Below, piece after piece: positions 1,607 through 24,062 of a stretch of DNA of 26,013 bases. Both the position numbers and the translations under genes were made by a program. The notes below the pieces were generated by a model. It saw nothing but the letters and a program-made list of their open reading frames with translations, was not told the origin of the DNA and did not search any database. The stretch's first letter is position 1. The number at the start of each line of letters is the position of its first letter. Origin of the DNA: a virus (lineage: Duplodnaviria > Heunggongvirae > Uroviricota > Caudoviricetes); IMG/VR virus record IMGVR_UViG_2671180460_000013; one strand, given 5' to 3'.

Positions 1607-3304
1607 TCAGGCGATAATGTCGCCGTATTTTTCGCGCAGGCTCGTCGCCTGCAGGGCATCTGCGGCAAGTTCGCTGCTGTTCATTGGTGTGCCAGTGTTG
1701 CTATGGGTGTGGTTTGCTGTATGTGTGGCCAGTAATTGAATCAGATCCAGAATATCGATCAGCAACGTCAGCAGGTTAAGCCCTGACTTTTCCCGCGAGC
1801 CGCCGCGACCAATAAATACTGTCGGAGCGGTAAACTCCAGACCGCCGTCCGCTCTGCATGTTCTGCGGCCTCCCACGTTTTCGGTGAGGTCATGCTCAAT
1901 GGTGGATATCGCCCCTTTGAGTTGAGTCAGCAAATCCTGCGCTACCATCTGGATATGCTCACCGGCTGCGATCGCATAATTGCCGGTAGTAAGGTGTTCT
2001 GTCTGGCCTGTCATCAGTTTGCTGGTACCAAGAACACTGGTTATGTCGTTTGCCTGGACTGTTGTTGTTCTGGTTGTTGTTGTGCGTTCTTCCTGATCGC
2101 TGTTAATGGTTCGCCTGGCTGAATGCTCCCTGATTTGCTGGTCGGTTTCTCTGTGCCAGCTTCCGTCAGTCGTGACGCGCTGAAACACTTCTGCGCGCTG
2201 TTGCTGCAGCTGTTCGCCGGGCTTTACATCAGGCAGGTTATGGCCTGCGGGTAAGATTTGCCTGATGACAGGTTTATCCGGTCGTCCTTCAATGTTGGAT
2301 ATTTCCACGATGGTGCCAGCCGGCGGGTAGGCAAAACATCCCGCCTCGCTACCAGCCATCGGGACGGGGAGTGGTACTGCCGGATAAACAGGCGTATCGC
2401 TTTTATCGTTGCCGTTCTCATCAAGCAGTTGCACATCGACGGCGTAGCGTGGGCGGAAACTGTCGGCAACATCGCCCAGGGTGACGGATTCCGTTGGGGC
2501 AATGACGCGCGCCAGCCTGGTATGTAGAGTACCGCTGGCCAGTTCCGGGAACTGTGTTTCCATCTGTCTGCGTAATGGTGATTTGGAAACAGGGCTACCC
2601 GTGGTGGTAAGGCGTTCCCATGTCAGGGTCATTTTCTCGTTGTTGAGGGCTACACGGGTAATGCGCCCGGCTGGAAGGTTCACGCCCGGTCGCACAGTTT
2701 CCATAAACATGATGTCGATGCTGTTTCCGCCGCTTTGCCCGAGTGTGTACTGTTGCGGAATATCCGGCATGGTAATACTGGCAAACCGTGAGTCCGATGC
2801 GCTTCCCACAAATACGGAACCGTCCGGCATTGGATGCCAGACGTAATCGCTGATACTGAATGCTCGCCCCAGCTGGCTAAGCAGTTGTGTTCCGCTGCCG
2901 CTGTGGGTGATGTAAGGTGTCGGAGTACCGACGTAATCCGCGTCTGGCGTGATGAAAACGATGCCGCTTTGTTTACCCAGACTATCGAGTACATCCCGTA
3001 ACGTTGGATGTTGCATGGAGCAGGGGAAATCAAAATCCAGCACGGCAGCTGCTTCACGGATAAAAAGGCGGCGTGAGCCATTTTCGGCGGGTTGATCGCG
3101 TTCAATGTAGCCGGAGAAATAGCGCCATGCCTCACCATTACGGCCGAGATCAATTTGTATCATTGCGCCGGCAAGACTTTTTTTGGGTGGCAGATTATTA
3201 ACAGAAATGAAGCCACGACCGGCAGCATTCAGGGTAAGAACAAGGCTGATATCGGCAATTTCCGCCAGCTCGCCATTAATCATACAGCGTTGGATTAATT
3301 TCAT
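1607..3304 (-). CDS. baseplate central spike protein (gpV / gp5-like OB-fold and His-rich tip) with a ~300-aa N-terminal extension, possibly a hub-spike fusion
   Basis: 565 aa. Motif AGTIVEISNIEGRPDKPVI resembles the OB-fold signature of P2 gpV / VgrG. C-terminal THTANHTHSNTG resembles the HxH metal-binding apex of spike proteins. ATGA overlap with the upstream gene; AGGAGG RBS. Confidence 0.5.
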   Translation of the reverse strand: MKLIQRCMINGELAEIADISLVLTLNAAGRGFISVNNLPPKKSLAGAMIQIDLGRNGEAWRYFSGYIERDQPAENGSRRLFIREAAAVLDFDFPCSMQHPTLRDVLDSLGKQSGIVFITPDADYVGTPTPYITHSGSGTQLLSQLGRAFSISDYVWHPMPDGSVFVGSASDSRFASITMPDIPQQYTLGQSGGNSIDIMFMETVRPGVNLPAGRITRVALNNEKMTLTWERLTTTGSPVSKSPLRRQMETQFPELASGTLHTRLARVIAPTESVTLGDVADSFRPRYAVDVQLLDENGNDKSDTPVYPAVPLPVPMAGSEAGCFAYPPAGTIVEISNIEGRPDKPVIRQILPAGHNLPDVKPGEQLQQQRAEVFQRVTTDGSWHRETDQQIREHSARRTINSDQEERTTTTRTTTVQANDITSVLGTSKLMTGQTEHLTTGNYAIAAGEHIQMVAQDLLTQLKGAISTIEHDLTENVGGRRTCRADGGLEFTAPTVFIGRGGSREKSGLNLLTLLIDILDLIQLLATHTANHTHSNTGTPMNSSELAADALQATSLREKYGDIIA

Positions 3305-3876
3305 GTTTTCCCTTCCTCCTTCACGCTCCCGATGCCAATCCAGTCCAGCCCGGAGCCAATACCATCATTGATATTTTTCCAGAAAGTCTCCTGGGTATTC
3401 ATTCCTTTATCTGGTGCCTGCTCACTGCCGTTCTGTGTCTGCTGCTTTGCGATTGTTTTCTGTGAGCCACTGCGTGCCGATGCTTTTTCCGGCACGCTTA
3501 ATTTTTCCCTGAGGGTAAAGGTGACCTGCCAGTGCATCTTGCCCTGTTGTTCCGTGGCATCGATGCCGCCCGAAAAAACACCCTGTCGCATATTAATCGC
3601 CTTAGCAGTAGCGTTGGCGATGCGGTATGTTTTTTTGGCTCCGTTACTTTCTGTTGCCTCCGCAAGCTGAAAAATACGGGTCAAAATAGCTTCATCGTTA
3701 AAATCAATAACCCCCGACACGCGCAGCTCTTTGGCCTTGTTTCCCTGCTGGGCGCTCGTGGTGCTGGTTGATTGTCCGGACATATCTTTGTCCGGTAGTT
3801 GCATGGTGGCGCTGACGGTGATGTTGCGCAGCAGAATGGCTTCCCCGTCAAGCGCAAGGACAATCATCTGGGTCAT
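3301..3876 (-). CDS. hypothetical tail/baseplate-associated protein (191 aa)
   Basis: ORF with ATG at 3874-3876; its stop overlaps the start of the spike gene (ATGA). Sits inside the tail operon; no recognisable motif. Confidence 0.4.
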   Translation of the reverse strand: MTQMIVLALDGEAILLRNITVSATMQLPDKDMSGQSTSTTSAQQGNKAKELRVSGVIDFNDEAILTRIFQLAEATESNGAKKTYRIANATAKAINMRQGVFSGGIDATEQQGKMHWQVTFTLREKLSVPEKASARSGSQKTIAKQQTQNGSEQAPDKGMNTQETFWKNINDGIGSGLDWIGIGSVKEEGKT

Positions 3877-4594: not shown

Positions 4595-6151
4595 TTACCC
4601 CATTCCGTTCTGGCGTAATGTTGTTCCCGCAAATATTTTTGCCACCACAACACAGGGAAGGGGGCCATTTTCTGCGCTGGCTGTCTCCTCCAGTGTCGAT
4701 GTATCCAGTGCATAGTAAGGTGTGTCTGGCATCACCACCCGTATTCTTACTGTTATTGTGCTCGCGGTAGCCGAAACAGAACCGACAAAATACTGAGCAG
4801 GAATGTATTTCCGGTTCTGATTCATGTAGAGATAACGTGGTTCGAGCAGAGCAGAAACAACGATACCCACTCCCCCAACAGAGGATTTCCTGACAGGATT
4901 AGATACATCCAGTTCCATAGCATAAATACGTGAACCATCCGGTAGGCTTTTAAATGAATCCAGGTTGCTGTTCAGGGTACTTGCAGCCACCTTTGGAATG
5001 ACCGGATGAGTGCCATCAACAAATAAGTCTCCGGATTGTTGTCTGGACAGTAAATTGGTCGGCGCAGAAGAAATTGCGGGGTCCTCTGATGAATGGATGT
5101 CAAGAGATTCTATCTGTTTGCGAACAAAGGCCACACTGGCAATTTCATTATCTGCTGCATCATCCGGCGGTGTTGGTATAGTCGGCTTTCCTGTGAATTC
5201 CGGGCTTTCCAGAGGAGCCCTTGTTTCAATAAGTTCCCTGAGTGCAACCTCGTTTACTTTCAGGTTTTCCCAGCCAGTCAGCCAGCCATTACCAGTGGAC
5301 CAGTAACGGTTGTAATAAATATTGCCATTAATGCCGTAGAAAATAATGGCCTTTGCTGTATGTGACGGAAGTGGTGGGTTCTGGTTCGCCTCCAGCCAGC
5401 GGATACTTATCACCCCCCGAAAAACAATGCCGGGAAGTACACCGTTTGCCCCATCCACATAATATTCTCCTGGTTCCACATATCTTATCCATGCCAGAAA
5501 ATCAGCATCAGAGTTAAACCTGACGGCCTCTCCCGGAATAAAAATATGCCCAAAACCAAATGCGCCTGGTGTCGCCAGACGACCTTCAGAACGGTCACGG
5601 ATACCATTCTGAGGTTCCATTGTGGCCGCTTTTTTTAGCCCGAGATTATCGCGTGATTCCTGTTGTGCCTCTTCGCCCTCATCAGCAATTTCTGACAGGC
5701 GATTAGGTGCTTTCAGTGCTGTTTTCAGTTCCGGAGTGATATCCACCTGCCAGCTCTGCGGAGGGGCTGTGACTTGTGCAGACTGAGCAATGCCGCTGTA
5801 TATAATCGTGAAATTACGAATAAGTGATTCGCCTGTTACTTTTTGTCGAACAGGCGTTTTTATTACGCCGCACAATGTTCTGCTGGCCTGATGGATGAGG
5901 CAAATCCAGTCATAACTGAATGCGGAGTCATCGGGAACAACGGCACTACACACAATATTGTTCTGACTTAACTGCCCATAGGTCAGTTCATTAACAATAT
6001 ATGTGATTTTTTCTTCCGGGATGGCATCATCTTCGCGCGTCGGCTCCCGCTCCATCAGGGCAAAAATAATGGCATCAGGGCGTGCAGGTAAATTACTGGC
6101 TGTGCATTCAGCAACCCACTTTTCAAATGCTTTCGTTAACAGTGCGCTCAT
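4595..6151 (-). CDS. tail fiber protein 2 (518 aa)
   Basis: N-terminal ~150 aa alignable by eye to the N-terminus of fiber 1 (PARPD, YxW motifs). Contains the fiber motif SPEFTGKPTIPTPP...EIASVAFV. C-terminal half is unrelated to fiber 1. AT-richer than neighbours. Confidence 0.7.
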   Translation of the reverse strand: MSALLTKAFEKWVAECTASNLPARPDAIIFALMEREPTREDDAIPEEKITYIVNELTYGQLSQNNIVCSAVVPDDSAFSYDWICLIHQASRTLCGVIKTPVRQKVTGESLIRNFTIIYSGIAQSAQVTAPPQSWQVDITPELKTALKAPNRLSEIADEGEEAQQESRDNLGLKKAATMEPQNGIRDRSEGRLATPGAFGFGHIFIPGEAVRFNSDADFLAWIRYVEPGEYYVDGANGVLPGIVFRGVISIRWLEANQNPPLPSHTAKAIIFYGINGNIYYNRYWSTGNGWLTGWENLKVNEVALRELIETRAPLESPEFTGKPTIPTPPDDAADNEIASVAFVRKQIESLDIHSSEDPAISSAPTNLLSRQQSGDLFVDGTHPVIPKVAASTLNSNLDSFKSLPDGSRIYAMELDVSNPVRKSSVGGVGIVVSALLEPRYLYMNQNRKYIPAQYFVGSVSATASTITVRIRVVMPDTPYYALDTSTLEETASAENGPLPCVVVAKIFAGTTLRQNGMG

Positions 6152-6157
6152 TACTTC

Positions 6158-6694
6158 TTAATTCTCGCTAATATTCTGCGGTAATTCTGGCCATACAATT
6201 GCGGCATACGATGATTTATCTGTAACCTGACTGAATGTCATCTCTCGTAACGTTTTTGTATAAATACGCCAGACTTTCAGCTTTTCCTTGTCTTCATCGC
6301 TGATTAACCCCAGCAGCAAGTCTGTCTTTTTATCGGATATTTCCCGTTCAGCAATCTCTATAAAACGCGCACGCTCCGACTCCGCCCGCTGTCTGTAGTC
6401 AACAGGAACAGGAAGAACTGCGCCATCTTTATAATACCAACGTGCTTCAATACAAAAACCTTCGGGTAATTCATCCGCTTCCACAATGGTAAAACCTGCC
6501 GGATAAAGCCGGGATACGTCTTCCGCCATTGAATAAATAACGCCGGTTTCAGGATGCGTGCACAGCTTGTACTTCTTCGTGAATTTATCCAGTGATTCAT
6601 AAAAATCCTGCCCGTCTTCACTACGGAAATACTGAATGCCTTCACCATAAGGCATATCTTCAGGGTAGTAACGCGTAACATTTCTGAGCTCCAT
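6158..6694 (-). CDS. tail fiber assembly protein (P2 gpG / Tfa-like)
   Basis: Start moved to the internal ATG at 6692-6694, preceded by AAGGAG. KDGAV motif and C-terminal WPELPQ resemble P2 gpG as recalled. Immediately downstream of fiber 1. Confidence 0.8.
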   Translation of the reverse strand: MELRNVTRYYPEDMPYGEGIQYFRSEDGQDFYESLDKFTKKYKLCTHPETGVIYSMAEDVSRLYPAGFTIVEADELPEGFCIEARWYYKDGAVLPVPVDYRQRAESERARFIEIAEREISDKKTDLLLGLISDEDKEKLKVWRIYTKTLREMTFSQVTDKSSYAAIVWPELPQNISEN

Positions 6695-6708
6695 TGTTTT
6701 CTCCTTAA

Positions 6709-8406
6709 TTAACCTGACACAGAACGCCATGCGCCATTTATATAAATCTGAGCCTGTTTGTAATACACGCCACCGATATTATCCGCAGAGTTGCTCCCGG
6801 TATCCTGAACCAGAATACCGGACAGGGTGCAGCCAGACGGTGCGCGGAACGTCCAGCTGTGTTCGTTCCCTCCCGGGTTGTAAAACACCTCACTGGTGTA
6901 CTGAAAATTCTGCACGCCTCCTGTTCTGGTCTGGTAGCGTTCATCGAAATTGCCATAATCAGTTGGTGTTACCCGCCCTGAAACATTCACTTCCCGGTTA
7001 CTTTGTAACGCGCCATTCTGAAAACGGAATATGTGCTGACCATTGGCATAAACATCCAGCAGGCCGTCACCATTCTGTTTCAGGCCGGTATCGTTATCCC
7101 CGAAAGCAATTGAGTTACCGCCCAGCGCGTTCTGAACGCCGATACCAAGTGCACCATTGACCTGCGAACCACCGCCAACAGACACTTTATGCGACATGGA
7201 TATTTCACCCGTCCGCAGATTAATAGTGAACGGTCGAAGTGGACCAATATCGCCATTCTCGCCCTGACCTTCACTGGTAGGGATAAGGTGCAGGCACTCT
7301 TCCGAACGACGAAAAATCAGACCAAAGGCTTCGTCGAAAATTCGCAGCGCATTAATACCACGGATTTTCAGCTCCCCGGTCATGGTATCGCCGTCGCGCT
7401 CAACAGCGCCTTTTGCCTTATCCATTACGATTTTTACTGCCTTTGATGTGGCGGCACGGTCTTCTGCGTCACTGTCGGTGTCATTACTGTACTGCGCAAA
7501 ACCCTTTTCGTTCAGTGTGGCATCCGGATGTCTGCGGGATTTTTCGTGTTCTGCCAGCGCATTGCTTTGTTCCTCGTCGGGTGTTTCCGGGCGCAGATCC
7601 TGTGGGCCGTCTCCTGTCATTTTTGCAAGTGGCGCGACAAAGTGTCGGAAGCCGTTATCGTCTGTATAGGACGCATGTTCCTGGCGGGCGCAGAACGTAA
7701 AAACGGTATTCCATTCGCCGGTAACAAATCCCTGCCAGCTTGCATCAATCCAGAGGGTATCCCCGACCGCAGCCGGCAGGCTGTAAGGTTCGCGCAGACT
7801 GACGCGCAGACCTCCCACATAACCCACGCCGGCGGCAACAGTAGCGGTACCGTCCTGATAGCTGACCTGAAAACCATCCCCCAGAAAAGCGGCTTCACCG
7901 TAGTGATCAAACGCCAGCAGCCGGCGGGCCTCATCCATTCCTGCAAGGCGTGCAGTGAAATCAATCTGCCAGACATCAGCGCTGACATCGATATGCATTG
8001 CTGCGGCTGCGCCGTCAAACTCCATGGAAAATGTGCGGATCAGGTTGTTTCCCTGCACGCCGTTCGCTGTTTTAATTTTTTGCTGACGAGGTGTGTGTGC
8101 AATCATGCAGAGCACGCCGCTTTCTTCGTTCAGCAGACCGATCCAGTTGTATTCGAAGTCGCCGACTGTCGTGTCCAGAATGATGGAAAACGCGGTCGCG
8201 TTCGGCGACAGGAGGCCGTACTGGGTGACCGGCGCACGATACTGAATCATGGATTCATCAGGGAGTATCTCATCGCGGGGGATCTCTGCGGATTCATCCT
8301 GTCCCGGAATATATGCAAAAACAAATGTATCCGGTCGCGCAGGTTTTCCACTGATGATCTGATTTGCGCACCAGTGTTCGTATTGTTCAGTAATAATCGT
8401 GCTCAT
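6709..8406 (-). CDS. tail fiber protein 1 (P2 gpH-like)
   Basis: 565 aa. AEHEKSRRHPDATLNEKGF, GDNDTGLKQNGDGLLDVYANGQHIFRFQNG and C-terminal YINGAWRSV match recalled P2 gpH blocks. ATGA overlap with the upstream gpI-like gene. Confidence 0.85.
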   Translation of the reverse strand: MSTIITEQYEHWCANQIISGKPARPDTFVFAYIPGQDESAEIPRDEILPDESMIQYRAPVTQYGLLSPNATAFSIILDTTVGDFEYNWIGLLNEESGVLCMIAHTPRQQKIKTANGVQGNNLIRTFSMEFDGAAAAMHIDVSADVWQIDFTARLAGMDEARRLLAFDHYGEAAFLGDGFQVSYQDGTATVAAGVGYVGGLRVSLREPYSLPAAVGDTLWIDASWQGFVTGEWNTVFTFCARQEHASYTDDNGFRHFVAPLAKMTGDGPQDLRPETPDEEQSNALAEHEKSRRHPDATLNEKGFAQYSNDTDSDAEDRAATSKAVKIVMDKAKGAVERDGDTMTGELKIRGINALRIFDEAFGLIFRRSEECLHLIPTSEGQGENGDIGPLRPFTINLRTGEISMSHKVSVGGGSQVNGALGIGVQNALGGNSIAFGDNDTGLKQNGDGLLDVYANGQHIFRFQNGALQSNREVNVSGRVTPTDYGNFDERYQTRTGGVQNFQYTSEVFYNPGGNEHSWTFRAPSGCTLSGILVQDTGSNSADNIGGVYYKQAQIYINGAWRSVSG

Positions 8407-10219: not shown

Positions 10220-10562
10220 CAAGAGATACCGTAAAAGTCAGGTGGTCAAAAAAATCTTCGGTGTGGGCGCTAATCAGCAGGCGACCAGAAAGCGGGGTTT
10301 CTTCTGTCACACTGACCGTGCCAGGTGTGATGCGCTCATCATCTTCAATCAGTAGTGTCATCTGCATTATGAGGTCGGCACGAAGCGTCGGGCTTTTTTC
10401 AGCCAGCAGGCGCGTTGCCAGTCCGCTCTCAATGATGGCGTGCTGGCAGTCCTGGGCAATACTTTCCCTGTTGTTGCATAACACCGGCTCACTGGCGCTG
10501 TTCAGCGTGAGATTGCGACCGGTGATAAGCAAATCAATGTAAAGCGGTTTATCAGTATGCAT
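10212..10562 (-). CDS. small baseplate protein, tentatively GPW / gp25-like
   Basis: Internal ATG at 10560-10562 with GGAG RBS gives 116 aa, overlapping the tape-measure stop. Size and position match P2 gpW; motif match is loose. Confidence 0.45.
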   Translation of the reverse strand: MHTDKPLYIDLLITGRNLTLNSASEPVLCNNRESIAQDCQHAIIESGLATRLLAEKSPTLRADLIMQMTLLIEDDERITPGTVSVTEETPLSGRLLISAHTEDFFDHLTFTVSLDD

Positions 10563-12648
10563 GTAGCTCCATCCACTCGTTGAGACGGGCAGGAGATGGA
10601 TCCTGCACGTTGACGTTGACCACACGACGGGAGTTATCGATTGTGGTCTGGTTTTCGTTGTTGTTCTGCATCTCTGCCGCAATGCCACCCGGCCCCGCGC
10701 TGATGGCTTTACCACCGGTTAATACGGAGCCTTCGCCACTTCCTGTGCTTTCTGATGTGCCGATGTTAACGCCGGGGATCATGTTGAGTTTGTCCACAAT
10801 CCAGCCCCATGAATCACTGAAGGACTGTTTCACCAGTTCCCAGAGGTTACTGAAAATGTTCAGGATGCCGCCGGCGATATCCTTCAGGGCGTCCAGAGGT
10901 GAATGCGTGGAAAAATAGTTAACCAGTGCATTCCAGCCGTCCTGGATTGTGTTCCATGCATTGCCGAACCATGCCCCCATACTGCCGACCATTTCAGCCA
11001 CCCACTGAAAGGCGGCGGTGTCCATCAGTGCGGCTTTGATTTCATCCCAACGGGTGATCAGGAAATAAATGCCCACACCCAGCGCAGCCAGTGCCAGGAT
11101 GATTAATGTGATGGGGCTGAAAAGTAACTGTGTTGCAATTGCAGCTCCGCTGGTGACTGCGGTGTAGATTTTCATTGCTATGCCGGCGGCACCCAGCGCA
11201 ACAGAATAAAGCCAGAGTCCGGCGCGCTGTAATTTCAGCAGCGCCAGCTGAATTTTTGCTTTGACGTTGTATGTTCCCATAGCAATGGACATGGCCAGAT
11301 ACAGCGCCCTGACCGTTCGGGCAACTACAGTGAATGCCCACATGGTAGCCGTCAGTGTGCGTTTCAGCAGAATGAGAATCTTCAGAGGTGTAACTGCTGC
11401 CAGCCAGACCAGCCGCAGTCCTGTCCAGACAAACTTCGCCACACCCACCATAATGTTGACAACGGCACCCACTGCGGCAATGCCCAGCAGGGCGGCAGAC
11501 AGTAAACCAATAGCCCGTGTGATATTGGGATACAGACGTAACCAGGCAACAAAGGATTTACCGCCTTCGTTGCTTTTCTGGATAAACGGGTACAGAACAG
11601 GCAGCAACTGCGTGCCGATTTCGATGCGAATGCCGTTAATAATTGCGGCGGCCTGTTCCCATGGATCAGCCATGGCCTGCGCCATTTCGACAGCCTTATC
11701 CATCCCTTTGATATTGCCCAGCGTGGCGATATTCTTTTCAAGTCCGCCAATGTCCGCATTGAGTAATTTAATCATGGCCACAGCTTCATCGGAGCCAAAG
11801 GCGCTTTTCAGCAAATCGGAATCAGCCACTTTTGACAGATCACCAAATTTGCCCCTGATAAGTTTCATGATCTCGACAACACTTTTCATCGTGCCGTTTT
11901 TATTCACGAAATTAAGCCCCAGCTTTTTCTGGGCGCTGCCTACTGCGGCAAGAAATGCCTTGTACTTTGTCCCGGCCTCGCTGCCACTCATGGTGGCCTG
12001 CAGTTGTCCCAGCACGGCGAACTGTTCAGCCGCATCAATACCGGCCGCTTTTGCACTGGCACCCAGCGTGGTGAACGCCGCTGACATGTTATCGCCGGTT
12101 GTTTTAAACATTTGCACGGCGGTGGCGGTTTGCCCGGCGACCTGCTCCACCCATTTGCTTTTTCCCATGGCATCAGCCTGGTCTTTAAAGATGCCGTACA
12201 TGGTGCCCATGTAGGCGGTAATGGTCTGGCTGCTGGATTTGGTTGCTGCTGCCACCGTTGCTGATGCGGTGGTGAAGCGGGACAGCTCATCGTCAGTTAA
12301 CCCGGCAATGGCTGACTGGATGTCGTAAGAAGCACGCACAAAATCCTGCGCAGCCCCGCCGTATTCCATAGTGAAATCAACGGCGGCGCGGCTGAGTTTA
12401 CGCAATCCGGACTCTGCGACGCCCAGTGATTTCACCTCACCGAGCGCCCTGTCCATTTCAATGGCTGGCATCAGTGCCCCCTGAATGGCTGCACCCACTC
12501 CCCAGAGCGCAGCGCCTCCGGTAGCAATGTCCCGAAAGGCTCCCCGACTTGTTGCAGCAAATCCCTGAACCTGTCGCCCGGCTGCACGCAACGGCCTTGT
12601 CAGGCGGTCTGTCAGTTCAAGAAGTAATTCAAGGCGCTGTTGTGACAT
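10552..12648 (-). CDS. tail tape measure protein
   Basis: 698 aa, Ala/Gly-rich with a long hydrophobic central segment. Directly follows the frameshifted tail chaperone pair; its ATG overlaps the stop of the frameshift product. Confidence 0.8.
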   Translation of the reverse strand: MSQQRLELLLELTDRLTRPLRAAGRQVQGFAATSRGAFRDIATGGAALWGVGAAIQGALMPAIEMDRALGEVKSLGVAESGLRKLSRAAVDFTMEYGGAAQDFVRASYDIQSAIAGLTDDELSRFTTASATVAAATKSSSQTITAYMGTMYGIFKDQADAMGKSKWVEQVAGQTATAVQMFKTTGDNMSAAFTTLGASAKAAGIDAAEQFAVLGQLQATMSGSEAGTKYKAFLAAVGSAQKKLGLNFVNKNGTMKSVVEIMKLIRGKFGDLSKVADSDLLKSAFGSDEAVAMIKLLNADIGGLEKNIATLGNIKGMDKAVEMAQAMADPWEQAAAIINGIRIEIGTQLLPVLYPFIQKSNEGGKSFVAWLRLYPNITRAIGLLSAALLGIAAVGAVVNIMVGVAKFVWTGLRLVWLAAVTPLKILILLKRTLTATMWAFTVVARTVRALYLAMSIAMGTYNVKAKIQLALLKLQRAGLWLYSVALGAAGIAMKIYTAVTSGAAIATQLLFSPITLIILALAALGVGIYFLITRWDEIKAALMDTAAFQWVAEMVGSMGAWFGNAWNTIQDGWNALVNYFSTHSPLDALKDIAGGILNIFSNLWELVKQSFSDSWGWIVDKLNMIPGVNIGTSESTGSGEGSVLTGGKAISAGPGGIAAEMQNNNENQTTIDNSRRVVNVNVQDPSPARLNEWMELHAY

Positions 12649-13129
12649 TACGATCCCTTAAAAGCACGGATAATGCCGTTATTGACGGCGATGCTCATAT
12701 TTTCCCAGTAGTGGTTATCCAGCCAGACGGCGGCAGCCAGTGACTGCGGCGAGTCATCCTCGCCGGGCAGCCAGTGGCGGCGCAGAATCAGCATCCGGGT
12801 AAGGTCATTGCGATCAATGGCCCCCAGATGGCTTTTTATTTTTTTACGGTGATTTCCACTTCCGGCACAAACTCGTTATTCACGGCTGTTGCCAGGCTGG
12901 CCGGCATTCCTGGTTTTTCCAGCAACTGGTTCAGCAGATCGCGGTGCTCTTTAATCACGATACGGCGCAGGTAGTTTTTCAGCGGCGCGATTTTGTTATC
13001 CGGCATGAAGTCGTTCTGCAGGTCGTTGTAGGCTTTTACGGTCGGGATAAACGTCAGTTCATGCTCGCCGACCTGTAAAGTGATGGTGTTCTCTGCGGTA
13101 GTCTGGGTGTTTTTATCGTTCATCATCAT
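12648..13129 (-). CDS. tail assembly chaperone frameshift fusion product (E+E' / G-T analogue) made by a programmed -1 frameshift
   Basis: The -1 frame entered at the slippery site stays open for 63 codons (hand-translated, no stops) and ends at a TAA overlapping the tape-measure ATG (TAATG at 12646-12650). Confidence 0.6.
12836..13129 (-). CDS. tail assembly chaperone (P2 gpE / lambda gpG analogue)
   Basis: 97-aa ORF directly upstream of the tape measure gene, ending ...VKK-TAA on an A-rich slippery run. Three consecutive ATGs at 13121-13129; the third has the best RBS spacing. Confidence 0.7.
   Translation of the reverse strand: MMMNDKNTQTTAENTITLQVGEHELTFIPTVKAYNDLQNDFMPDNKIAPLKNYLRRIVIKEHRDLLNQLLEKPGMPASLATAVNNEFVPEVEITVKK
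12839..12845 (-). other. slippery heptamer A AAA AAA for the -1 ribosomal frameshift
   Basis: Transcript reads ACC GTA AAA AAA TAA; the X XXY YYZ heptamer sits at the last sense codons of the chaperone gene. Confidence 0.6.
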
Positions 13130-13155
13130 TTCCTTTTAAAGTCAAGAATAAGAGG

Positions 13156-13187
13156 GCTTAATAAGCCTGCAGGAAGGCTTATTAAGC
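13156..13187 (-). terminator. stem-loop (12-bp perfect inverted repeat) between the endolysin and the tail chaperone; candidate attenuator or partial terminator
   Basis: GCTTAATAAGCC, 8-nt loop, GGCTTATTAAGC, 7 nt after the endolysin stop. Followed on the transcript by a moderately U-rich tract (CCUCUUAUUCUU). Confidence 0.4.
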
Positions 13188-13193
13188 GTAAAA

Positions 13194-13535
13194 TCAGCGC
13201 ACGCCGTCGTGCTCAAGGCTGAAATGATTGCCATCCGGGCGGTTTTTAAAACGACCGCCCCATGCGCCACCAAGGGATTCCCAGTACTCGCCCAGCTCGC
13301 GGTAGGCCTCTGTGCGGGTCTGATATTCACCGTTAATAAACAGATTAAAATCCACGGCCAGCCGCTGGCAGTGCAGGCTGTTGGCAATGCCGGATCCCTT
13401 TTGTGCGTTGAGTTTTGCCTGTTCTGGCGTGCGGTACGCCTCACCGAACGTCAGGCCATAACCGCGCTGATGGGCAAACTGGATGAGTTTTCCGATCATG
13501 ACGGTAAATTGTTGTTGCTTATCGGAGAGTTTCAT
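13194..13535 (-). CDS. endolysin, M15-family zinc peptidase (L-alanyl-D-glutamate peptidase type)
   Basis: 113 aa. HCQRLAVD (H-x6-D) and C-terminal GNHFSLEH fit the M15 zinc-binding arrangement. AAGGAG RBS. Adjacent to the holin. Confidence 0.75.
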   Translation of the reverse strand: MKLSDKQQQFTVMIGKLIQFAHQRGYGLTFGEAYRTPEQAKLNAQKGSGIANSLHCQRLAVDFNLFINGEYQTRTEAYRELGEYWESLGGAWGGRFKNRPDGNHFSLEHDGVR

Positions 13536-13639
13536 TTTTGCTCCTTATGAGGTTGCTGAGGTTTGCGCAGCCAGTACCACAGTGCCCGGATAATTTTCCA
13601 GGCAATGGCGGCAGCTTTTTGTTCCCTGCGGGACAGCAT
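13532..13639 (-). CDS. small cationic amphipathic ORF (35 aa, MLSRREQKAAAIAWKIIRALWYWLRKPQQPHKEQK) between holin and endolysin
   Basis: Hand-translated; below the ORF-track size cutoff. ATG at 13637-13639 with GAGGAG RBS inside the holin 3' end. Its TGA overlaps the endolysin ATG (ATGA). Confidence 0.4.
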   Translation of the reverse strand: MLSRREQKAAAIAWKIIRALWYWLRKPQQPHKEQK

Positions 13640-13644
13640 TGCTG

Positions 13645-13941
13645 TTACTCCTCTTTGTTCTCTTTCTCGCCCAGCTTCCGGCGCATATGACGCAGGAAGA
13701 TTTCAACAATCTGGTAACCGGCAACGCCCATTGCGGTGCCTGCGCCGGCAATGGCCAGTGGGTCAAGGTTCGGGTAGCGAACCAGCAGGGCAGCGGCAGA
13801 AACACCCAGCGCGCTCCCCAGCAGGGTTCGGCCCACAAACAACCGCAACGTAATCGGCTCTGCGCCAGCCAGCACCCGACTTGCGGCAGCGATTCCGCCC
13901 AGAATGCCCAGAGTGATAATGGTGCGCTCATGCTCCTGCAT
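13645..13941 (-). CDS. holin (three predicted transmembrane segments, charged C-terminal tail)
   Basis: 98 aa with three hydrophobic stretches and a C-terminal RHMRRKLGEKENKEE. Directly upstream of the endolysin. GGGGTG RBS. Confidence 0.65.
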   Translation of the reverse strand: MQEHERTIITLGILGGIAAASRVLAGAEPITLRLFVGRTLLGSALGVSAAALLVRYPNLDPLAIAGAGTAMGVAGYQIVEIFLRHMRRKLGEKENKEE

Positions 13942-13944
13942 GGT

Positions 13945-14400
13945 TCACCCCATCAGTCCGCGCACGTCGTTCTCTGAGAGAACGGGCACGCCGTTGATAC
14001 GCACAAAGTCAGGGCTTGCCACCACGTACTTGATTTTGTGCGTGGTCAGATCTGCGCTCTCGGTGTCAATGCTTAACAGGCCGGAAAGCATCAGCTCACA
14101 ACCGAAGGCTTCAACGCGGATTTCTTCGGTTCCCGTATTGGCGTAAAACACAAAATCCATTGGCGGCAGGTCACGCCACGATCCCGCCTGAGCAGCCACT
14201 TCCCCGAGCTGGTTAAAGCTGCGGGTACTCATTTCGATTTCACCTTCGGCACTGACAGGGCCGCGCAGTTTGCCGTCAGGGATGCCACGGGTTTTGGCAA
14301 CGGCGCTTTCATCGCTGATGTCCAGTGAGATGCTTTTCACATGGATATCCGTTCCACCGATAAAAGTGTCAAACGCCATGCCGTTAATGCGGGTCGTCAT
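13945..14400 (-). CDS. tail tube protein (putative)
   Basis: 151 aa, immediately downstream of the sheath gene with an ATGA overlap. Assignment is by position and size, not motif. Confidence 0.6.
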   Translation of the reverse strand: MTTRINGMAFDTFIGGTDIHVKSISLDISDESAVAKTRGIPDGKLRGPVSAEGEIEMSTRSFNQLGEVAAQAGSWRDLPPMDFVFYANTGTEEIRVEAFGCELMLSGLLSIDTESADLTTHKIKYVVASPDFVRINGVPVLSENDVRGLMG

Positions 14401-15545
14401 GCGTTTTCCTCCAGAGATTTATCCAGCTGAATGCCCACTTTGATGGTTTTAGGGCAGGCGTAAGGGCGGACAACAATGCTGATGCTGACCGTCTTTTCGT
14501 CCTGCCAGGTGATAACCACGTCGCCTTTCCGGGGCGATTTCACTTCGCCCGGAAACGTGATGCCGTTAATTTGCATGGATTTCGCCATGGCACGCAGTGG
14601 GCGGGCAAACAGCGTTTCATGTGCGGCAATGCTGCCCGGCGTGCTGTTCAGCGAGCGGTCGGCAATCTTGGGGATGGCCATCAGCCGCACGCGGCGCGCC
14701 ACCTTATCAGCAATGCGGACATGCTCAATGACGTTGTAGTCCCCGCCTTCCACCTCAAGTGTTACACCGTCAGCCCAGTAAAGGCCGTCATAGTCGGCAT
14801 ACCACATGGGCACGCTGTAGCGGGCGGTTGCCAGTGCCTGCAGAGTGTCGAGATCAATTGCCTGCCCAGTGCTGTCTTTCGGGCGTTCTGTGGTTTTCAG
14901 TGCGGACAGGGGCCCGGTTGCCACACGTGCCGGACTGTCAGCAATGGTGACGGCGCTGTTACACAGGCGACCGGCAAGAACGCCCGGTTCAAATCCAAAA
15001 ATCTCCGGAACCAGCATGACCTGCGGGGCTGCAATGCCTTTCTGTAGTGCGGTCAGTTCGGCAACGTATTCCGCCCAGGTTTTACTGTTGTCGTTGGCGG
15101 CGATGGTCAGGATGAACCAGATGCGGCGCTGATATTTATTGATGATGGTCTGACGTAACGCCTGTATGGCGTTGATGTCATCCTTCGTGCTGACCGGCTC
15201 GGTGATCACCACGCCTTCAACTGAAACAGTTTCCTGAGCCGCCAGTATGGCGTTCTGCCATACCTGGCAGGCTGGCGTTGCTTCTTTGCCTTTGCCGGCT
15301 TCCGGCAGAACGGCAACATAGAAAAAGGCATTCTGTCCGGCATTGGTCAGTGCAGACTGAAGGAAGTTCTTCAGCGGGCTGGCGTTCTTTCCCAGTAGCT
15401 CATCCAGATCGCTGTTGGCATTAACCGGCAGAACCTCACCTTTGTTGTTTTGTGCATTGCCCACAAACAGCAGCGTATTTTCCACGCCGTCCGGTGAACT
15501 GCTGAATGTGTTGTACTGTTCAATCGTGACAGATGGCCATGTCAT
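14397..15545 (-). CDS. tail sheath protein (putative)
   Basis: Internal ATG at 15543-15545 with AGGAGA RBS gives 382 aa (MTWPSVTIEQY...). Position between tail-completion genes and tube. Not P2 FI-like in sequence. Confidence 0.6.
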   Translation of the reverse strand: MTWPSVTIEQYNTFSSSPDGVENTLLFVGNAQNNKGEVLPVNANSDLDELLGKNASPLKNFLQSALTNAGQNAFFYVAVLPEAGKGKEATPACQVWQNAILAAQETVSVEGVVITEPVSTKDDINAIQALRQTIINKYQRRIWFILTIAANDNSKTWAEYVAELTALQKGIAAPQVMLVPEIFGFEPGVLAGRLCNSAVTIADSPARVATGPLSALKTTERPKDSTGQAIDLDTLQALATARYSVPMWYADYDGLYWADGVTLEVEGGDYNVIEHVRIADKVARRVRLMAIPKIADRSLNSTPGSIAAHETLFARPLRAMAKSMQINGITFPGEVKSPRKGDVVITWQDEKTVSISIVVRPYACPKTIKVGIQLDKSLEENA

Positions 15546-15564
15546 GGTTTGTCTCCTGATTTTG

Positions 15565-16278
15565 TTATCTCGTGCCGCCGTAATGCAGGCTGCGCAGCTG
15601 CGCTTCCAGAATGCGGGCAAATTCAGCATCGCTGGCTCCCAGAAATGCGCGGGAGGGGATTTTGATTTCCCATACACGTTTTTTCTGCTCGCCTTTCAGA
15701 ATGCTGATCACCAGTCCGGCCTGCGCCATACTCATGTTTTCCATAATCCATTTCAGAGAAGGCTTTCTGCGTCCCCTGCGTCCGGTTTTTTTGCTGACTG
15801 CGCCGACGGGGGCGCGAAAGCCCAGAGAAAGAAGGCGTTCTGCCTGCCGTCGTGTGGCGGGACGGGTGCGCATGGCTTCGCTGTCCCGGCGTTTTGTGGC
15901 GCGGCCTTTGATGGTTGCGCCGTGCTGTTGCACCCACGCGACCGCCCCACCATGAGAGCCGGTGTTGTAATCCCCTTTTTTGAAGAAAAGGCGGACACTT
16001 TTCCCGCTGCCGTCAACCCTGATGGCCAGCAGTTTCGGCAGTCCCAGCAGCATTTTGTTTTTATACCTGCCGCTGGCTTTATCCGGTCTTTTTCGTGGTG
16101 CCCAGGCTGCCCCCTCCGGTGTTCGCTGTGCTTTCACATTGCGTCGTGCAGCCGGTATCAGGCCGTATTTCGCAATGCGAACCAGCAGCTTTCTGGCCTT
16201 TGCCGGCGGAAGTTCTGCCTCTCTGATGGCGCGACGAACCAGCCGGAGTTGTGACTCGTTAATCACGGGGCGCGTCAT
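15565..16278 (-). CDS. virion morphogenesis / tail completion protein (P2 gpS / Mu G family) with a C-terminal extension
   Basis: 237 aa. Region RRNVKAQRTPEGAAWAPRKRP matches the recalled hallmark of this family. ATGA overlap with the upstream R-like gene. Confidence 0.65.
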   Translation of the reverse strand: MTRPVINESQLRLVRRAIREAELPPAKARKLLVRIAKYGLIPAARRNVKAQRTPEGAAWAPRKRPDKASGRYKNKMLLGLPKLLAIRVDGSGKSVRLFFKKGDYNTGSHGGAVAWVQQHGATIKGRATKRRDSEAMRTRPATRRQAERLLSLGFRAPVGAVSKKTGRRGRRKPSLKWIMENMSMAQAGLVISILKGEQKKRVWEIKIPSRAFLGASDAEFARILEAQLRSLHYGGTR

Positions 16279-16748
16279 GGCATCACCTGGCAGTGAAGCT
16301 GATGCGCCTGAGCCACCCAGATTTCAGGCTTTTCCAGCTGGTAACGTTTCCCGCCTCTGGGGATGGGGCCGTTTTCGTCCTCAACCAGGGTGATGGGATC
16401 AACCAGCGGCAGACTGATTTCCAGCCATGCCACTTCATTTTCATCATCCACTTCGACGTCAACGGCTGGCGCATCCGGTGCCAGGCGCTGGCGCAGGTCG
16501 CCGCCGTTGTCTGCCAGCCAGGCTTCAACCAGAGAAAACACCAAATCCGGATTGAGCTGACGATAGGGCCATGCGTCCCATCGCAGAAAAGCCGTATATT
16601 TTCGGACCTGCGTACATAACTGCCCGTGCCCCAGCGACTTCGTAAACGGAACGAGCGTGATGTCATCCATGTCACTGGTGAACGGAATGCGTGCGCGTGC
16701 CGGCAGATTGTTTTCAATGAATGCCGTCAGGCTGGCGAGTTGCGTCAT
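16275..16748 (-). CDS. tail completion protein, P2 gpR-like
   Basis: 157 aa. LVFSLVEAWLADNGGDL...LEISLPLV resembles recalled P2 gpR. AAGGAA RBS. Follows gene L by 9 nt. Confidence 0.6.
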   Translation of the reverse strand: MTQLASLTAFIENNLPARARIPFTSDMDDITLVPFTKSLGHGQLCTQVRKYTAFLRWDAWPYRQLNPDLVFSLVEAWLADNGGDLRQRLAPDAPAVDVEVDDENEVAWLEISLPLVDPITLVEDENGPIPRGGKRYQLEKPEIWVAQAHQLHCQVMP

Positions 16749-16757
16749 ACCATTTCC

Positions 16758-17252
16758 TTAATCAATCAGCGCGATGGATGCACGCGGTCGGCCCAGCAGC
16801 GCCCGCACCGCCATGGCCGCTTCAGCCAGCAACGTCCGGCGGCTTTCGCTGGCTTCTGATGATGGCTGCGCCTCGCGCCGCCCCACGCTGGCAGATTCCG
16901 GCAAAAGATCGGCCTTTGCGCGGGCATACACAGCCTTGGTGTACAGTGCTGTAATGTGGTTCTGCATCCGTTCAGGTTGTGCATCCGTATTGCGCGGCTC
17001 TGGTTGCAACACGGTGTAACCCGGAATATCAGCGGCCCGGATGTGGCCCTGTTCCTGCCAGTATTCACGGCGTGCAGCCAGTTCAGTGTTAATCTCTGTT
17101 ACCGCGCAAAGCAGCGCCGTCAGCACCGTTTCGTGTGACGTGACGGCGGGGATGCTGCGGCTCTTTTCAAAATCGCCGGCATCAATATCCGGCCAGAATC
17201 CATCGTTCTGAATAATGGCCTGCTGATAGTGAATGCTTTTCCCGTCAAACAT
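16758..17252 (-). CDS. L: head completion/stabilization protein, P2 gpL-like
   Basis: ORF-track start at 17447 is GTG. The internal ATG at 17250-17252 (GGAG RBS, MFDGKS...) gives 164 aa, matching P2 gpL size. FWPDID resembles FFPDID recalled from P2 L. Confidence 0.7.
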   Translation of the reverse strand: MFDGKSIHYQQAIIQNDGFWPDIDAGDFEKSRSIPAVTSHETVLTALLCAVTEINTELAARREYWQEQGHIRAADIPGYTVLQPEPRNTDAQPERMQNHITALYTKAVYARAKADLLPESASVGRREAQPSSEASESRRTLLAEAAMAVRALLGRPRASIALID

Positions 17253-17350
17253 GCTCACTCCGGGGAAAGGCGGGCTGACCGGTTTCCGCAGTGTGCTGAT
17301 GGCTTTTGCCGGCACACCTCCACCGCGCCCGCCCGGTTGTTGGGAGTCGT

Positions 17351-18061
17351 TTACGTGCCCTGCAACGCGCGCAGTCTTGCGGCAATGCGCTGGCGCAGGG
17401 TTTTCACCTGAATTTTTGGATGCAGCCAGGCAGCCTGTTCCAGACACTGGTCGGCCTGTTGCAGTCTCTCCGGATCGTTAATTGCACTGGCCAGCGGTTT
17501 ACCGTCATCGCCGCGCAGCAGCAGGACGCCTGCAAAGCGCCAGTAGCGGGCAGCAAGGCGTTCATTCACGCGCCATTTGTCACGGATTTTTTCAAACACC
17601 TGCTGAAAATATGGCGCGATACTGTTCCCACGTTCAGCTTCGGTTTCTGCCCATTCAAGAATGAAATGGGCCACAAACGTTGGCAGCTCGCTTTTGAAGT
17701 TCTCCGGCGTCTTTTGCCCCTGCTCAATGGCAATGTCAGCCCACCGCAGCGCCATCTCAAACTGCCCGGTATCGAACAGCCAGATGATGCAGTACACCAG
17801 AATGGGATTCTGATAGACGCGTTCCCCCTCCAGATAAGCCTGTGCGTGTGGCAGCCAGCGGGGCAGCAGCGTGTTCCGTTTGAATTCCAGCTTGTCAGAC
17901 AGCAGCTCCATGTTGTGCAGTTGTCTGATGTCGTTATCCAGTGCCAGCAGCTTAATGTGCTGACTCTCTGTGCTGATGGCGCTCCCGTCCGTTCTGGTCA
18001 TGAGCGCCGCACGGCGCTCATCCATCTGTCGGGCACGTTGTCGCTGCATTGGCGTTGGCAT
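17351..18061 (-). CDS. M: terminase small subunit, P2 gpM-like
   Basis: 236 aa; position between N and L as in P2; GGAG RBS. Confidence 0.8.
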   Translation of the reverse strand: MPTPMQRQRARQMDERRAALMTRTDGSAISTESQHIKLLALDNDIRQLHNMELLSDKLEFKRNTLLPRWLPHAQAYLEGERVYQNPILVYCIIWLFDTGQFEMALRWADIAIEQGQKTPENFKSELPTFVAHFILEWAETEAERGNSIAPYFQQVFEKIRDKWRVNERLAARYWRFAGVLLLRGDDGKPLASAINDPERLQQADQCLEQAAWLHPKIQVKTLRQRIAARLRALQGT

Positions 18062-23355: not shown

Positions 23356-23406
23356 AACCCGGAACGGGCGCACAAAGAATTTGCGCACCCGTTCCGGGTT
23401 TTCTTA
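23356..23406 (+). terminator. intrinsic terminator between convergent ogr and the Rrf2/par operon (possibly bidirectional)
   Basis: 13-bp perfect stem AACCCGGAACGGG / CCCGTTCCGGGTT around a 19-nt partly self-complementary loop, followed by TTTTCTTATTC on the plus strand. Confidence 0.6.
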
Positions 23407-23763
23407 TTCAATGGCAGACAACTGATAATTTGTGTCTTCCTGCAGGCTGGTTAAAGAAATATTATCCAGTGCAGCCAGAATAACGTGCTGTGTATATAAT
23501 CCGGAACATTTCATTGCCCGGACAATATCACCAACACTGTAATTTTCTTTTGTCGGGATATATCCACCACCCGGGCCGCGTGTGGCTTTTACCAGGCTAC
23601 TTTCCCGTAAATATCTGAATATTTGCTCCAGATATGACAGTGAAACGGTTTCTTTGCTTAATTGCCGGAGCGAGATTGGCTTTCCGGTGTACTGTTTCAC
23701 AAATTTAATCATTACCATAACTGCAACTGATGCACGCTGGCTTCCGGAATTATCTTTCATCAT
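23404..23763 (-). CDS. Rrf2-family transcriptional regulator (short; lacks the three-Cys cluster ligand set)
   Basis: Start at the ATG doublet 23758-23763 with GGAAG RBS. ISLRQLSKETVSLSYLEQIFRYLRESSLVKATRGPGGGY matches the Rrf2 HTH / GGGY signature. Only one Cys in the C-terminal half. Confidence 0.7.
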   Translation of the reverse strand: MMKDNSGSQRASVAVMVMIKFVKQYTGKPISLRQLSKETVSLSYLEQIFRYLRESSLVKATRGPGGGYIPTKENYSVGDIVRAMKCSGLYTQHVILAALDNISLTSLQEDTNYQLSAIE

Positions 23764-23774
23764 GATTACTTCCA

Positions 23775-24062
23775 TTAATGGCATAAATTGATGGAGCGGG
23801 TCAGTGAATAAAGAGGCAATACATTCCATCCCTTAGAGCGCCAGCTGTCTGCAACATCTTTACTTCTTGTTATCGCCGGTATTCCAATAGGATTATTTGC
23901 GTGCATCCATGCCACTGGCTCTGCTTCCAGTGATGCAAGTGCGATTTCCAGTGCGATTAACATATTGTGATCGTCTTCATCAAGACCGAACGGGATGTCT
24001 TCGCGCCACGATTTAAACTCTGTGATTTTACGTTGTAACCATTCTTTGGTAATGGTGGACAT
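23775..24062 (-). CDS. hypothetical protein (95 aa) co-transcribed between parR and the Rrf2 gene
   Basis: ORF-track start at 24080 is GTG. The internal ATG at 24060-24062 has an AGGAG RBS 6 nt upstream. No recognisable motif. Confidence 0.5.
   Translation of the reverse strand: MSTITKEWLQRKITEFKSWREDIPFGLDEDDHNMLIALEIALASLEAEPVAWMHANNPIGIPAITRSKDVADSWRSKGWNVLPLYSLTRSINLCH

Follow-up and report, generated by a model that had tools for sequence, protein, structure and literature searches.

In the temperate phage P2, the genes for the holin (Y) and the endolysin (K), together with lysA, lysB and lysC, form a lysis cassette that lies between genes L and R. In the Haemophilus phage HP1, hol and lys lie between ORF24, which encodes the tail tube protein, and ORF25, according to work published in 2020 on its lytic module (PMC7312051). 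Among 677 phages of Gram-negative hosts, 91, or about one in seven, had no recognisable spanin; HP1/HP2, K139, phiO18P and ESSI-2 are among those that bear spanins (Kongari et al., PMC6139136). The only alternative to a spanin that has been shown to work is the disruptin of coliphage phiKT, gp28, which has no homologues to guide annotation. Disruptins are a functionally defined class of which gp28 is the one tested member. It is a peptide of 56 residues with a net charge of +7 that is predicted to be amphipathic, and its gene lies between those for the endolysin and the holin in a phage that lacks spanins; lambda Rz/Rz1 mutants are complemented by gp28, and the synthetic peptide also has activity (10.1101/515445). 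The authors of that work predicted that unrelated peptides of this kind would occur in other spanin-less phages (10.1101/515445). Here we describe the lysis cassette (positions 13194-13941, minus strand) of the IMG/VR virus record IMGVR_UViG_2671180460_000013, a stretch of 26,013 nucleotides that is referred to below, at its full length, as the window. The cassette is a spanin-less variant of the known HP1 arrangement and contains an unannotated, evidently coding gene for a cationic peptide, which is a candidate for a second disruptin family.

The placement of the cassette is the textbook HP1 arrangement, and its interest may lie in its content: in a lineage of common Escherichia coli prophages, the spanins that are present in close relatives are missing, and a conserved gene for a small peptide with the physical hallmarks of a disruptin is found instead. 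If the peptide has the proposed function, the disruptin solution would have arisen more than once, and also in temperate myoviruses, and a compact outer-membrane-active peptide of only 35 residues would have been found in a gene that the current RefSeq annotation omits. The relatives that share the endolysin but use spanins would then constitute a natural swap experiment.

Results and Discussion

A small gene between the holin and endolysin genes

The holin gene (13645-13941; 98 amino acids) and the endolysin gene (13194-13535; 113 amino acids), both on the minus strand, are separated by 109 nucleotides. A first-pass annotation of the window, made from the sequence without database searches, had described them as an apparently minimal cassette. 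The part of that description that concerns the spanins holds, since they are absent here, unlike in close relatives, but a third, unannotated gene that fills the 109-nucleotide gap had been missed. This open reading frame (ORF) of 35 codons, our candidate for an outer-membrane disruptor, is located at 13532-13639 on the minus strand and encodes MLSRREQKAAAIAWKIIRALWYWLRKPQQPHKEQK. It starts 5 nucleotides past the holin stop codon, has a GAGGAG site 8 nucleotides upstream of its ATG, and ends with a TGA that overlaps the ATG of the endolysin gene (ATGA). The ORF is not annotated in RefSeq, its product had no match in Pfam or PHROGs, and a tblastn search of 50,697 phage records with the peptide gave no match at E values up to 10. 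A large protein search with a 41-residue homologue as the query returned only 17 clusters, none of which has a functional name.

The interval is occupied by a comparable ORF in all four sub-lineages, although at the DNA level these retain about 72% identity or no recognisable similarity. The counterpart in an E. coli genome with about 72% DNA identity (locus L007) has 35 residues (MNTTDRQWRVIATLWRYGQALWRLWKKLRNSNRRE), and those of loci L033 and L034 have 29 (MNKHQLHRLLRLAYWLWQCISKNRKKGGF) and 41 residues (MTGKKASPGILSGMRQFAVKVWQLLRSLQKLRNSMNGKTRP), respectively. The stop codon overlaps the endolysin ATG, as ATGA or TGATG, in all of the sub-lineages, and in L034 the ORF begins with a GTG that overlaps the holin stop. 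The 41-residue form of L034 is listed as a "hypothetical protein" in one NCBI assembly. In the frame of the ORF, the window and L026 differ by 9 synonymous and 6 non-synonymous changes, compared with 2 and 13 in each of the other frames, and the length variants of 32, 34 and 38 residues differ by whole codons. When the spacers of the four lineages were shuffled, an ORF of at least 27 residues with a net charge of at least +6 was obtained in 0.8%, 1.4%, 0.16% and 3.8% of the trials. These comparisons make it likely that the small ORF is a genuine gene and is translated.

Properties of the encoded peptide

The window peptide has a length of 35 residues, a net charge of +7, three tryptophans and a hydrophobic moment of 0.62. 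All forms of the peptide have a net charge of +6 to +9 (+7 to +9 in the four representatives of the sub-lineages), one to four tryptophans and the motif W-x3-[RQ]-A-L, and the best 18-residue hydrophobic moment ranges from 0.53 to 0.78 across the forms. An AlphaFold2 model based on 16 homologues consists of one helix (residues 4-25) and a tail that is basic and disordered; the predicted local distance difference test (pLDDT) score is 73-91 for residues 1-30. Neither a transmembrane segment nor a signal sequence is present. With these features the peptide falls within the published description of a disruptin, namely a strongly cationic product of fewer than 80 residues that has a predicted amphipathic helix and lacks a transmembrane domain (TMD) and a signal (10.1101/515445), and the context is also that of a disruptin, the gene being part of the lysis cassette of a spanin-less phage. 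We considered whether the ORF might be a remnant of the N-terminus of an inner-membrane spanin (i-spanin) or of the holin C-terminus; this was rejected, as the peptide is amphipathic and not hydrophobic and the holin is of full length.

A precedent is phiKT, in which gp27 is the endolysin, gp28 the disruptin and gp29 the holin. Like the window phage, phiKT is spanin-less and has a gene for a small cationic amphipathic peptide between those for the holin and the endolysin, and the two holins are homologous (28% identity over 86 residues, BLASTP E value of 1e-11; L091, 22283-22666). In contrast, phiKT is a virulent podovirus in which the gene order is reversed and the endolysin is T4-lysozyme-like, and gp28, with 56 residues rather than 35, is not tryptophan-rich and has a demonstrated function, that of the window peptide being predicted. 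Despite their homologous holins, phiKT and the window phage are otherwise unrelated. A literature search on the whole word "disruptin" found no description of a further disruptin family.

Loss of the spanin genes

To place the window cassette among its relatives, about 170 loci were compared, of which 80 were IMG/VR loci collected by alignment of the tube protein and 80 more by alignment of the holin, the others being 7 metagenome loci and several E. coli genomes. The tube, holin, endolysin and chaperone genes were mapped on each locus by tblastn. In the spanin scan, ORFs of at least 25 residues were searched for a lipobox following an N-terminus that is both hydrophobic and positively charged, and those of 70-220 residues for an N-terminal TMD. 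The scan was applied to the window and to the whole of a complete 37-kb copy of the prophage that is annotated in NZ_LR778147, where it is flanked by flk and an integrase gene. For a two-component spanin (Rz/Rz1), the only candidates from the lipobox and N-terminal TMD searches of both sequences were antisense ORFs located within large structural genes, which bears out the statement in the first-pass annotation that no spanin-like gene pair is visible. As to a unimolecular spanin of the T1 gp11 type, the late-gene strand of neither the window nor the prophage copy contained a credible ORF with a lipobox. The annotation of the prophage copy in NZ_LR778147 includes no gene named spanin, and it shows no second lysis cassette in the prophage, this holin and this M15 peptidase being the only ones in the copy.

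Two architectures separate cleanly among the compared loci. In the first, to which the window belongs along with L001, L004, L007, L008, L011-L034 and L092-L122, and in which the tube is at least 83% identical, the gap between the holin and endolysin genes is 85-140 nucleotides and that between the endolysin and chaperone genes 34-100 nucleotides. In the second, which comprises about 85 loci (tube 45-59% identical), the holin gene overlaps the endolysin gene or lies within about 40 nucleotides of it, and the gap between the endolysin and chaperone genes is about 470-530 nucleotides. This gap contains an ORF of 110-172 residues with an N-terminal TMD and an overlapped lipobox ORF in 30 of the 31 loci that were checked directly, and the lipoboxes in the ORFs for the outer-membrane spanin (o-spanin) read ...LSAC or ...SGCS. 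By these signatures, the gap of the second architecture holds an overlapped two-component spanin pair. The endolysins of these relatives are 69-80% identical to that of the window and the holins only 31-60%. The comparison indicates that the absence of spanins in the window lineage is a derived loss relative to its close relatives.

Described phages with spanins at this site are the ESSI-2 group (Cronobacter/Escherichia, Quadragintavirus), SI7 (Irrigatiovirus) and vB_YenM_324. They share with the window the position of the cassette, the holin family (31-60% identity) and an M15 endolysin of 113 residues (112 in SI7) that is 75-80% identical to that of the window. They differ in that the holin gene overlaps the endolysin gene without an intervening ORF, and in that an Rz-like i-spanin and a lipoprotein o-spanin are encoded before the chaperone, where the window has a hairpin and these phages have none.

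Two IMG/VR loci (L049 and L051; tube at 3001-3453) have no M15 endolysin gene between the tube and chaperone genes. L049 retains a holin-like match and L051 has neither gene, so that the lysis genes must be elsewhere or missing.

The holin and the endolysin

The first-pass annotation had proposed that the 98-residue protein is a holin and the 113-residue protein an M15 endolysin, and in profile searches both matched the respective families above the curated cut-off. The holin matched PF04550 (Phage_holin_3_2) with an E value of 5.5e-28 and 97.7 bits (cut-off 25), with 85 of the 86 profile positions covered, as well as phrog_175 (E value of 1.2e-32). A simple hydropathy profile indicated three hydrophobic segments at approximately residues 7-27, 32-55 and 60-84, and the C-terminal tail is charged (RHMRRKLGEKENKEE). 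With the holin of PSP3, a P2-like phage, the protein shares 42% identity.

The endolysin matched PF13539 (Peptidase_M15_4) with 44.1 bits (cut-off 25) and also four endolysin PHROGs. Residues H55, D62, D101, H104 and H109 are invariant in an alignment of 12 homologues; the spacing H55-x6-D62 and D101-x2-H104 is that of the zinc-ligand pattern, and the same region of Ply500 and of T5-type peptidases aligns with it. Although a phmmer search of the PDB with the single sequence gave no match, a profile of endolysin homologues identified three L-alanyl-D-glutamate peptidases, namely the A500 Listeria phage enzyme (2vo9, E value of 0.0037), LysECD7 (8q2g) and the T5 enzyme (2mxz). The top Foldseek matches of a single-sequence model (pLDDT of 70.8) were all M15 proteins (LysECD7 8q2g, the RB49 peptidase, ChiX and VanY), albeit weak ones, with E values of about 0.04 and template modelling scores of about 0.5. 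The endolysin, an M15 (LAS-type) metallopeptidase, probably acts as an L-alanyl-D-glutamate endopeptidase. This cytoplasmic enzyme has no signal, signal-arrest-release (SAR) sequence or N-terminal hydrophobic segment, and its export therefore relies on the holin. The gene has a Shine-Dalgarno sequence of its own, AAGGAG, 6 nucleotides upstream of the start.

A model for lysis and its alternatives

The best explanation overall, about which we are evenly poised between acceptance and doubt, is that the locus is a spanin-less cassette at the HP1 position that specifies a holin, a disruptin-like peptide and an endolysin. The holin would open large lesions in the inner membrane at a programmed time, and both the endolysin and the 35-residue cationic amphipathic peptide would escape to the periplasm. 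There, the endolysin would cleave the L-Ala-D-Glu bond of the peptide stems, and the peptide would insert into the outer membrane from its inner face and destabilise the membrane, replacing the spanin step as phiKT gp28 does. Two parts of this explanation are put forward more tentatively. One is that the product of the small ORF carries out the outer-membrane step, which is plausible but somewhat short of probable. The other, which we would likewise call a fair conjecture rather than an expectation, is that the tryptophan-rich cationic peptides of 27-41 residues represent a second disruptin family, unrelated in sequence to gp28, that replaced Rz/Rz1 in a temperate myovirus.

A number of observations count against this model. 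The pooled variable sites of the peptide are distributed over the three codon positions as 8, 9 and 10, whereas those of the holin are distributed as 7, 1 and 37 and those of the endolysin as 8, 2 and 31, and the peptide evolves faster than its neighbours, under weaker constraint. Truncated alleles (27 and 33 residues) and two frameshifted clusters are found in public assemblies (P0016, P0017; L029; L013/L018/L024), and the last residues of the peptide are partly dictated by the Shine-Dalgarno sequence of the endolysin gene. No similarity between the peptide and gp28 could be detected (hhalign probability of 0.2%). In addition, a third lineage (L123, L125 and L127; tube 66-68% identical) has a related holin, then a 183-residue endolysin of another type (MNIDAIFEQLLGKEGNYVDHPSDK...), and then the chaperone directly (approximately 2498-3390 in each), with neither a spanin pair nor a small cationic ORF at the cassette position; spanin loss without this peptide therefore occurs. 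Finally, the link between acquiring the peptide and losing the spanins is drawn, in essence, from a single evolutionary event within one monophyletic group. The peptide resembles the gp28 disruptin in kind and not in sequence, and it cannot be classed as a homologue. As to the defective alleles, we note that the truncated ones retain the helical core and the frameshifted ones do not.

Several of these observations are what one would expect if the cassette consisted only of the holin and the endolysin, the small ORF being a leader for translational coupling of the endolysin or a spacer that is open by chance. The spanins would then simply have been lost, and lysis would be less efficient and would rely on shear or on low concentrations of divalent cations; lambda spanin mutants still lyse in shaken cultures to which no Mg2+ has been added. 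The overlap of the ORF stop with the endolysin ATG in all lineages suits a leader, as do the rate of evolution of the peptide, which is the highest in the cassette, the lack of a bias towards third codon positions among its pooled variable sites, the existence of truncated and frameshifted alleles, and a sister lineage that has neither spanins nor peptide. On the other hand, the endolysin gene has its own strong AAGGAG site and is expressed in relatives without a leader, and a pure leader need not preserve a charge of +6 to +9, tryptophan and the W-x3-[RQ]-A-L motif across lineages that otherwise cannot be aligned. Nor would it be expected to show insertions or deletions of whole codons and synonymous changes that are in excess in this frame and in no other. 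We regard this explanation as unlikely, although it has to be taken seriously.

One could also envision that the peptide acts at the inner membrane on the holin, as an antiholin, a timing factor or an accessory for endolysin release. Lcc6 of LambdaSo, a small accessory lysis protein that acts at the level of the holin (10.1101/2024.01.23.576932), provides a precedent for such a role. The peptide is encoded directly after the holin, with the GTG start overlapping the holin stop in L034, and the strong divergence of the holin (31-60% identity, against 69-80% for the endolysin) would fit co-evolution with a new partner. Unlike Lcc6 and most antiholins, the peptide has no transmembrane segment, and an action on the holin leaves unexplained why the spanins are absent in exactly this lineage; we think that such a role is rather improbable. 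Still less credence can be given to the idea that spanins of unconventional topology are encoded elsewhere in the prophage or are supplied by another resident prophage. Kongari et al. (PMC6139136) allow that other topologies could in principle act as spanins, and the prophage has many hypothetical genes, but the lipobox and N-terminal TMD scans gave only antisense ORFs inside large genes, and the spanins of the relatives lie within the cassette itself.

Placement of the cassette

The cassette is the lysis module in the late operon of a temperate myovirus of the HP1 type (Peduoviridae) that is integrated in E. coli. The late genes of the window are all on the minus strand, as are the hairpin and the DUF6890 ORF described below. 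The tail sheath gene (14397-15677; DUF2586 / phrog_907) ends with a stop codon that overlaps the ATG of the tail tube gene (ATGA); its start is annotated by RefSeq as giving a shorter protein in a near-identical prophage copy. The tube gene (13945-14400) belongs to the HP1 Orf24 family (PF10772, Phage_HP1_Orf24, E value of 1.1e-50; phrog_1182). Its TGA stop is at 13947-13945 and the ATG of the holin gene at 13941-13939, which leaves the gap of 3 nucleotides that had been noted previously. Downstream of the lysis genes are the genes for the tail assembly chaperone (12836-13129; PF10963, Phage_TAC_10) and the tape measure protein (10552-12648; PF10145), so that the holin and M15 genes lie between tube and chaperone, as the first-pass annotation had placed them from the sequence; profile matches and coordinates agree with it on this point. 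The genes for the holin and the endolysin share a transcript with those for the sheath and the tube, to which they are tightly coupled, and they almost certainly constitute a holin-endolysin pair at the HP1-type position.

That annotation had gone on to call the placement non-canonical, which proved to be true only in comparison with P2. The HP1 record U24159 gives the order orf23 (sheath), orf24 (tube), hol, lys, orf25, orf26 and orf27, and has been annotated in this way since 1996. In tblastn comparisons, HP1 orf24, orf26 and the region upstream of orf27 matched the tube, chaperone and DUF6890 sequences of the window, respectively, with the tube 51% identical to orf24. The lytic module of HP1 thus shares with the window the order sheath, tube, lysis genes, chaperone and tape measure, with the cassette located before the chaperone gene (ORF26), and homologous tube, chaperone and DUF6890 extension sequences. 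The lysis proteins themselves differ, those of HP1 being a pinholin, a SAR muramidase and the LysB-like ORF25 (PMC7312051); hol and lys overlap, with no small ORF between them, and tblastn detected no similarity between HP1 and the window holin or endolysin. The order in ESSI2_ev015 (Escherichia), SI7 (Salmonella) and vB_YenM_324 (Yersinia) is tube, holin, endolysin, Rz-like spanin and chaperone, and every enterobacterial HP1-like phage or prophage examined that has this M15 endolysin carries the cassette at this spot. The placement is therefore not unusual, being shared by HP1 and these relatives; it is ancestral, the rule for this branch of the Peduoviridae, and already known.

Accordingly, we see hardly any room for the view that an unusual insertion of a lysis cassette into a P2-type tail operon has created a novel genome organisation. 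The gene order does depart from that of P2, where the lysis genes follow L and precede R and S, but the tail genes of the window are of the HP1 type and not of the P2 type, HP1 and all of the examined relatives carry the cassette at the same place, and the HP1 record and PMC7312051 refute such a reading. What the window has in common with P2 and PSP3 is the Pfam family of the holin and the P2 type of the head genes O, N, M and L and of the tail completion genes R and S. In profile matches, the GpL (16758-17447), GpR (16275-16748) and GpS (15565-16278) homologues were found to be contiguous, in agreement with the earlier remark that L is directly followed by R and S. P2, and PSP3 according to its annotation, differ from the window in having another endolysin and LysB/LysC equivalents of the spanins.

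A hairpin downstream of the endolysin gene

The sequence that follows the endolysin gene, where the relatives have their spanin genes, forms a terminator-like hairpin (13156-13187, within an element at 13146-13187). The arms, GCUUAAUAAGCCU and AGGCUUAUUAAGC, form 13 perfect pairs around a 6-nucleotide loop (UCCUGC) and are followed by CCUCUUAUUC. A perfect stem at this site had been reported previously, with a length of 12 base pairs; the stem is indeed perfect but is one pair longer. Folding of a 76-nucleotide stretch gave approximately -21 kcal/mol (z = -3.5 relative to dinucleotide shuffles), and the hairpin is the best terminator-like site between 12500 and 16500. It is present in the window group, L007, L025, L032 and L034 and absent in L033, and no comparable hairpin was found upstream of the chaperone gene in the spanin-bearing relatives. 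Across five hairpin variants, 93.8% of the cells are paired, and two pairs are changed on both sides (U-A / A-U / G-C, and A-U / U-A). The covariation score was reached by 4 of 500 column shuffles, and slid registers reduced the pairing to 15-54%. The compensatory changes, together with the rarity of matching shuffles, argue that the pairing is selected. The sequence after the hairpin, CC(C/A)UCUU(A/C)UUC(U/C)UGAC, is also conserved. No Rfam family was found in the window at the gathering score, nor in 12700-14000 at E values up to 1. The possibility that the hairpin arm is a dispersed repeat was rejected, as the window contains no second occurrence of it.

The hairpin probably serves either as an intrinsic terminator, a partial or weak one, or to stabilise the 3' end of the message for the sheath, tube and lysis proteins. 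It would reduce read-through into the genes for the chaperone, the tape measure and the baseplate, and so separate them from the sheath-tube-lysis message, which is needed in abundance. A more efficient termination is argued against by the A+U-rich stem and the interrupted U-tract, because of which the hairpin would be at best a weak terminator.

Distribution and other features of the prophage

Of 5426 complete E. coli genomes, 41 have a chromosomal prophage with a cassette at least 98% identical to that of the window, and one further genome has a version with about 72% identity; in STEC711 the identity is 100%. Prophages of the window lineage occur in Shiga toxin-producing and enterotoxigenic E. 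coli isolates from livestock and food. A megablast search of the phage collection with the cassette DNA gave 0 matches, and the collection includes no cultured phage of the window lineage; the best tube match in it was 56% identical. An E. albertii tube locus was among the matches listed in a tube-protein scan of genome contigs. The copy in NZ_LR778147 combines P2-type head genes and HP1-type tail genes with genes for an Ogr/Delta-like regulator, a replication endonuclease, Cox and a repressor. In the window, the HP1 type of the tail is evident from the HP1 Orf24 tube protein, the DUF2586 sheath protein and the HP1 ORF34 baseplate protein (3301-3876).

A DUF6890 ORF (12648-12794; profile match) lies in the -1 frame relative to the chaperone gene. 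A heptamer, A_AAA_AAA (12839-12845, minus strand), is found directly upstream of the chaperone stop codon, the ORF ending in GUA AAA AAA UAA. A -1 slip on this heptamer would probably join the chaperone to the DUF6890 frame and yield a product like P2 E'. In RefSeq, DUF6890 is a free-standing protein of 48 residues, which is probably a mis-annotated frameshift extension.

The window also carries a gene for a ParM-type actin-like plasmid segregation ATPase (24396-25355, minus strand; PF06406/PF21523, E value of 1e-82). In the annotated copy, a "plasmid partitioning/stability" gene adjoins the ParM-type gene and has next to it a gene for an Rrf2-family regulator; the window region concerned also takes in 23404-23829 (minus strand). 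Such cargo is unusual in a P2/HP1-like prophage that is integrated, and it could point to an episomal phase. At the tail-fibre end, the cargo varies with the copy: window positions 1-381 (minus strand) contain an ORF for a YafO-type toxin (E value of 1.1e-27), and at this place the NZ_LR778147 copy (L001, 5381-7141) has genes for a DNA methyltransferase, a Com-family regulator, which recalls com/mom of Mu, and a Hok/Gef toxin. Tandem tail-collar fibre genes are located at 4595-6151 and 6709-8406 (minus strand), the downstream one being preceded by a Caudo_TAP tail-fibre assembly gene (6158-6730). The tail-fibre region is the least conserved between copies, with 88-92% identity and rearrangements.

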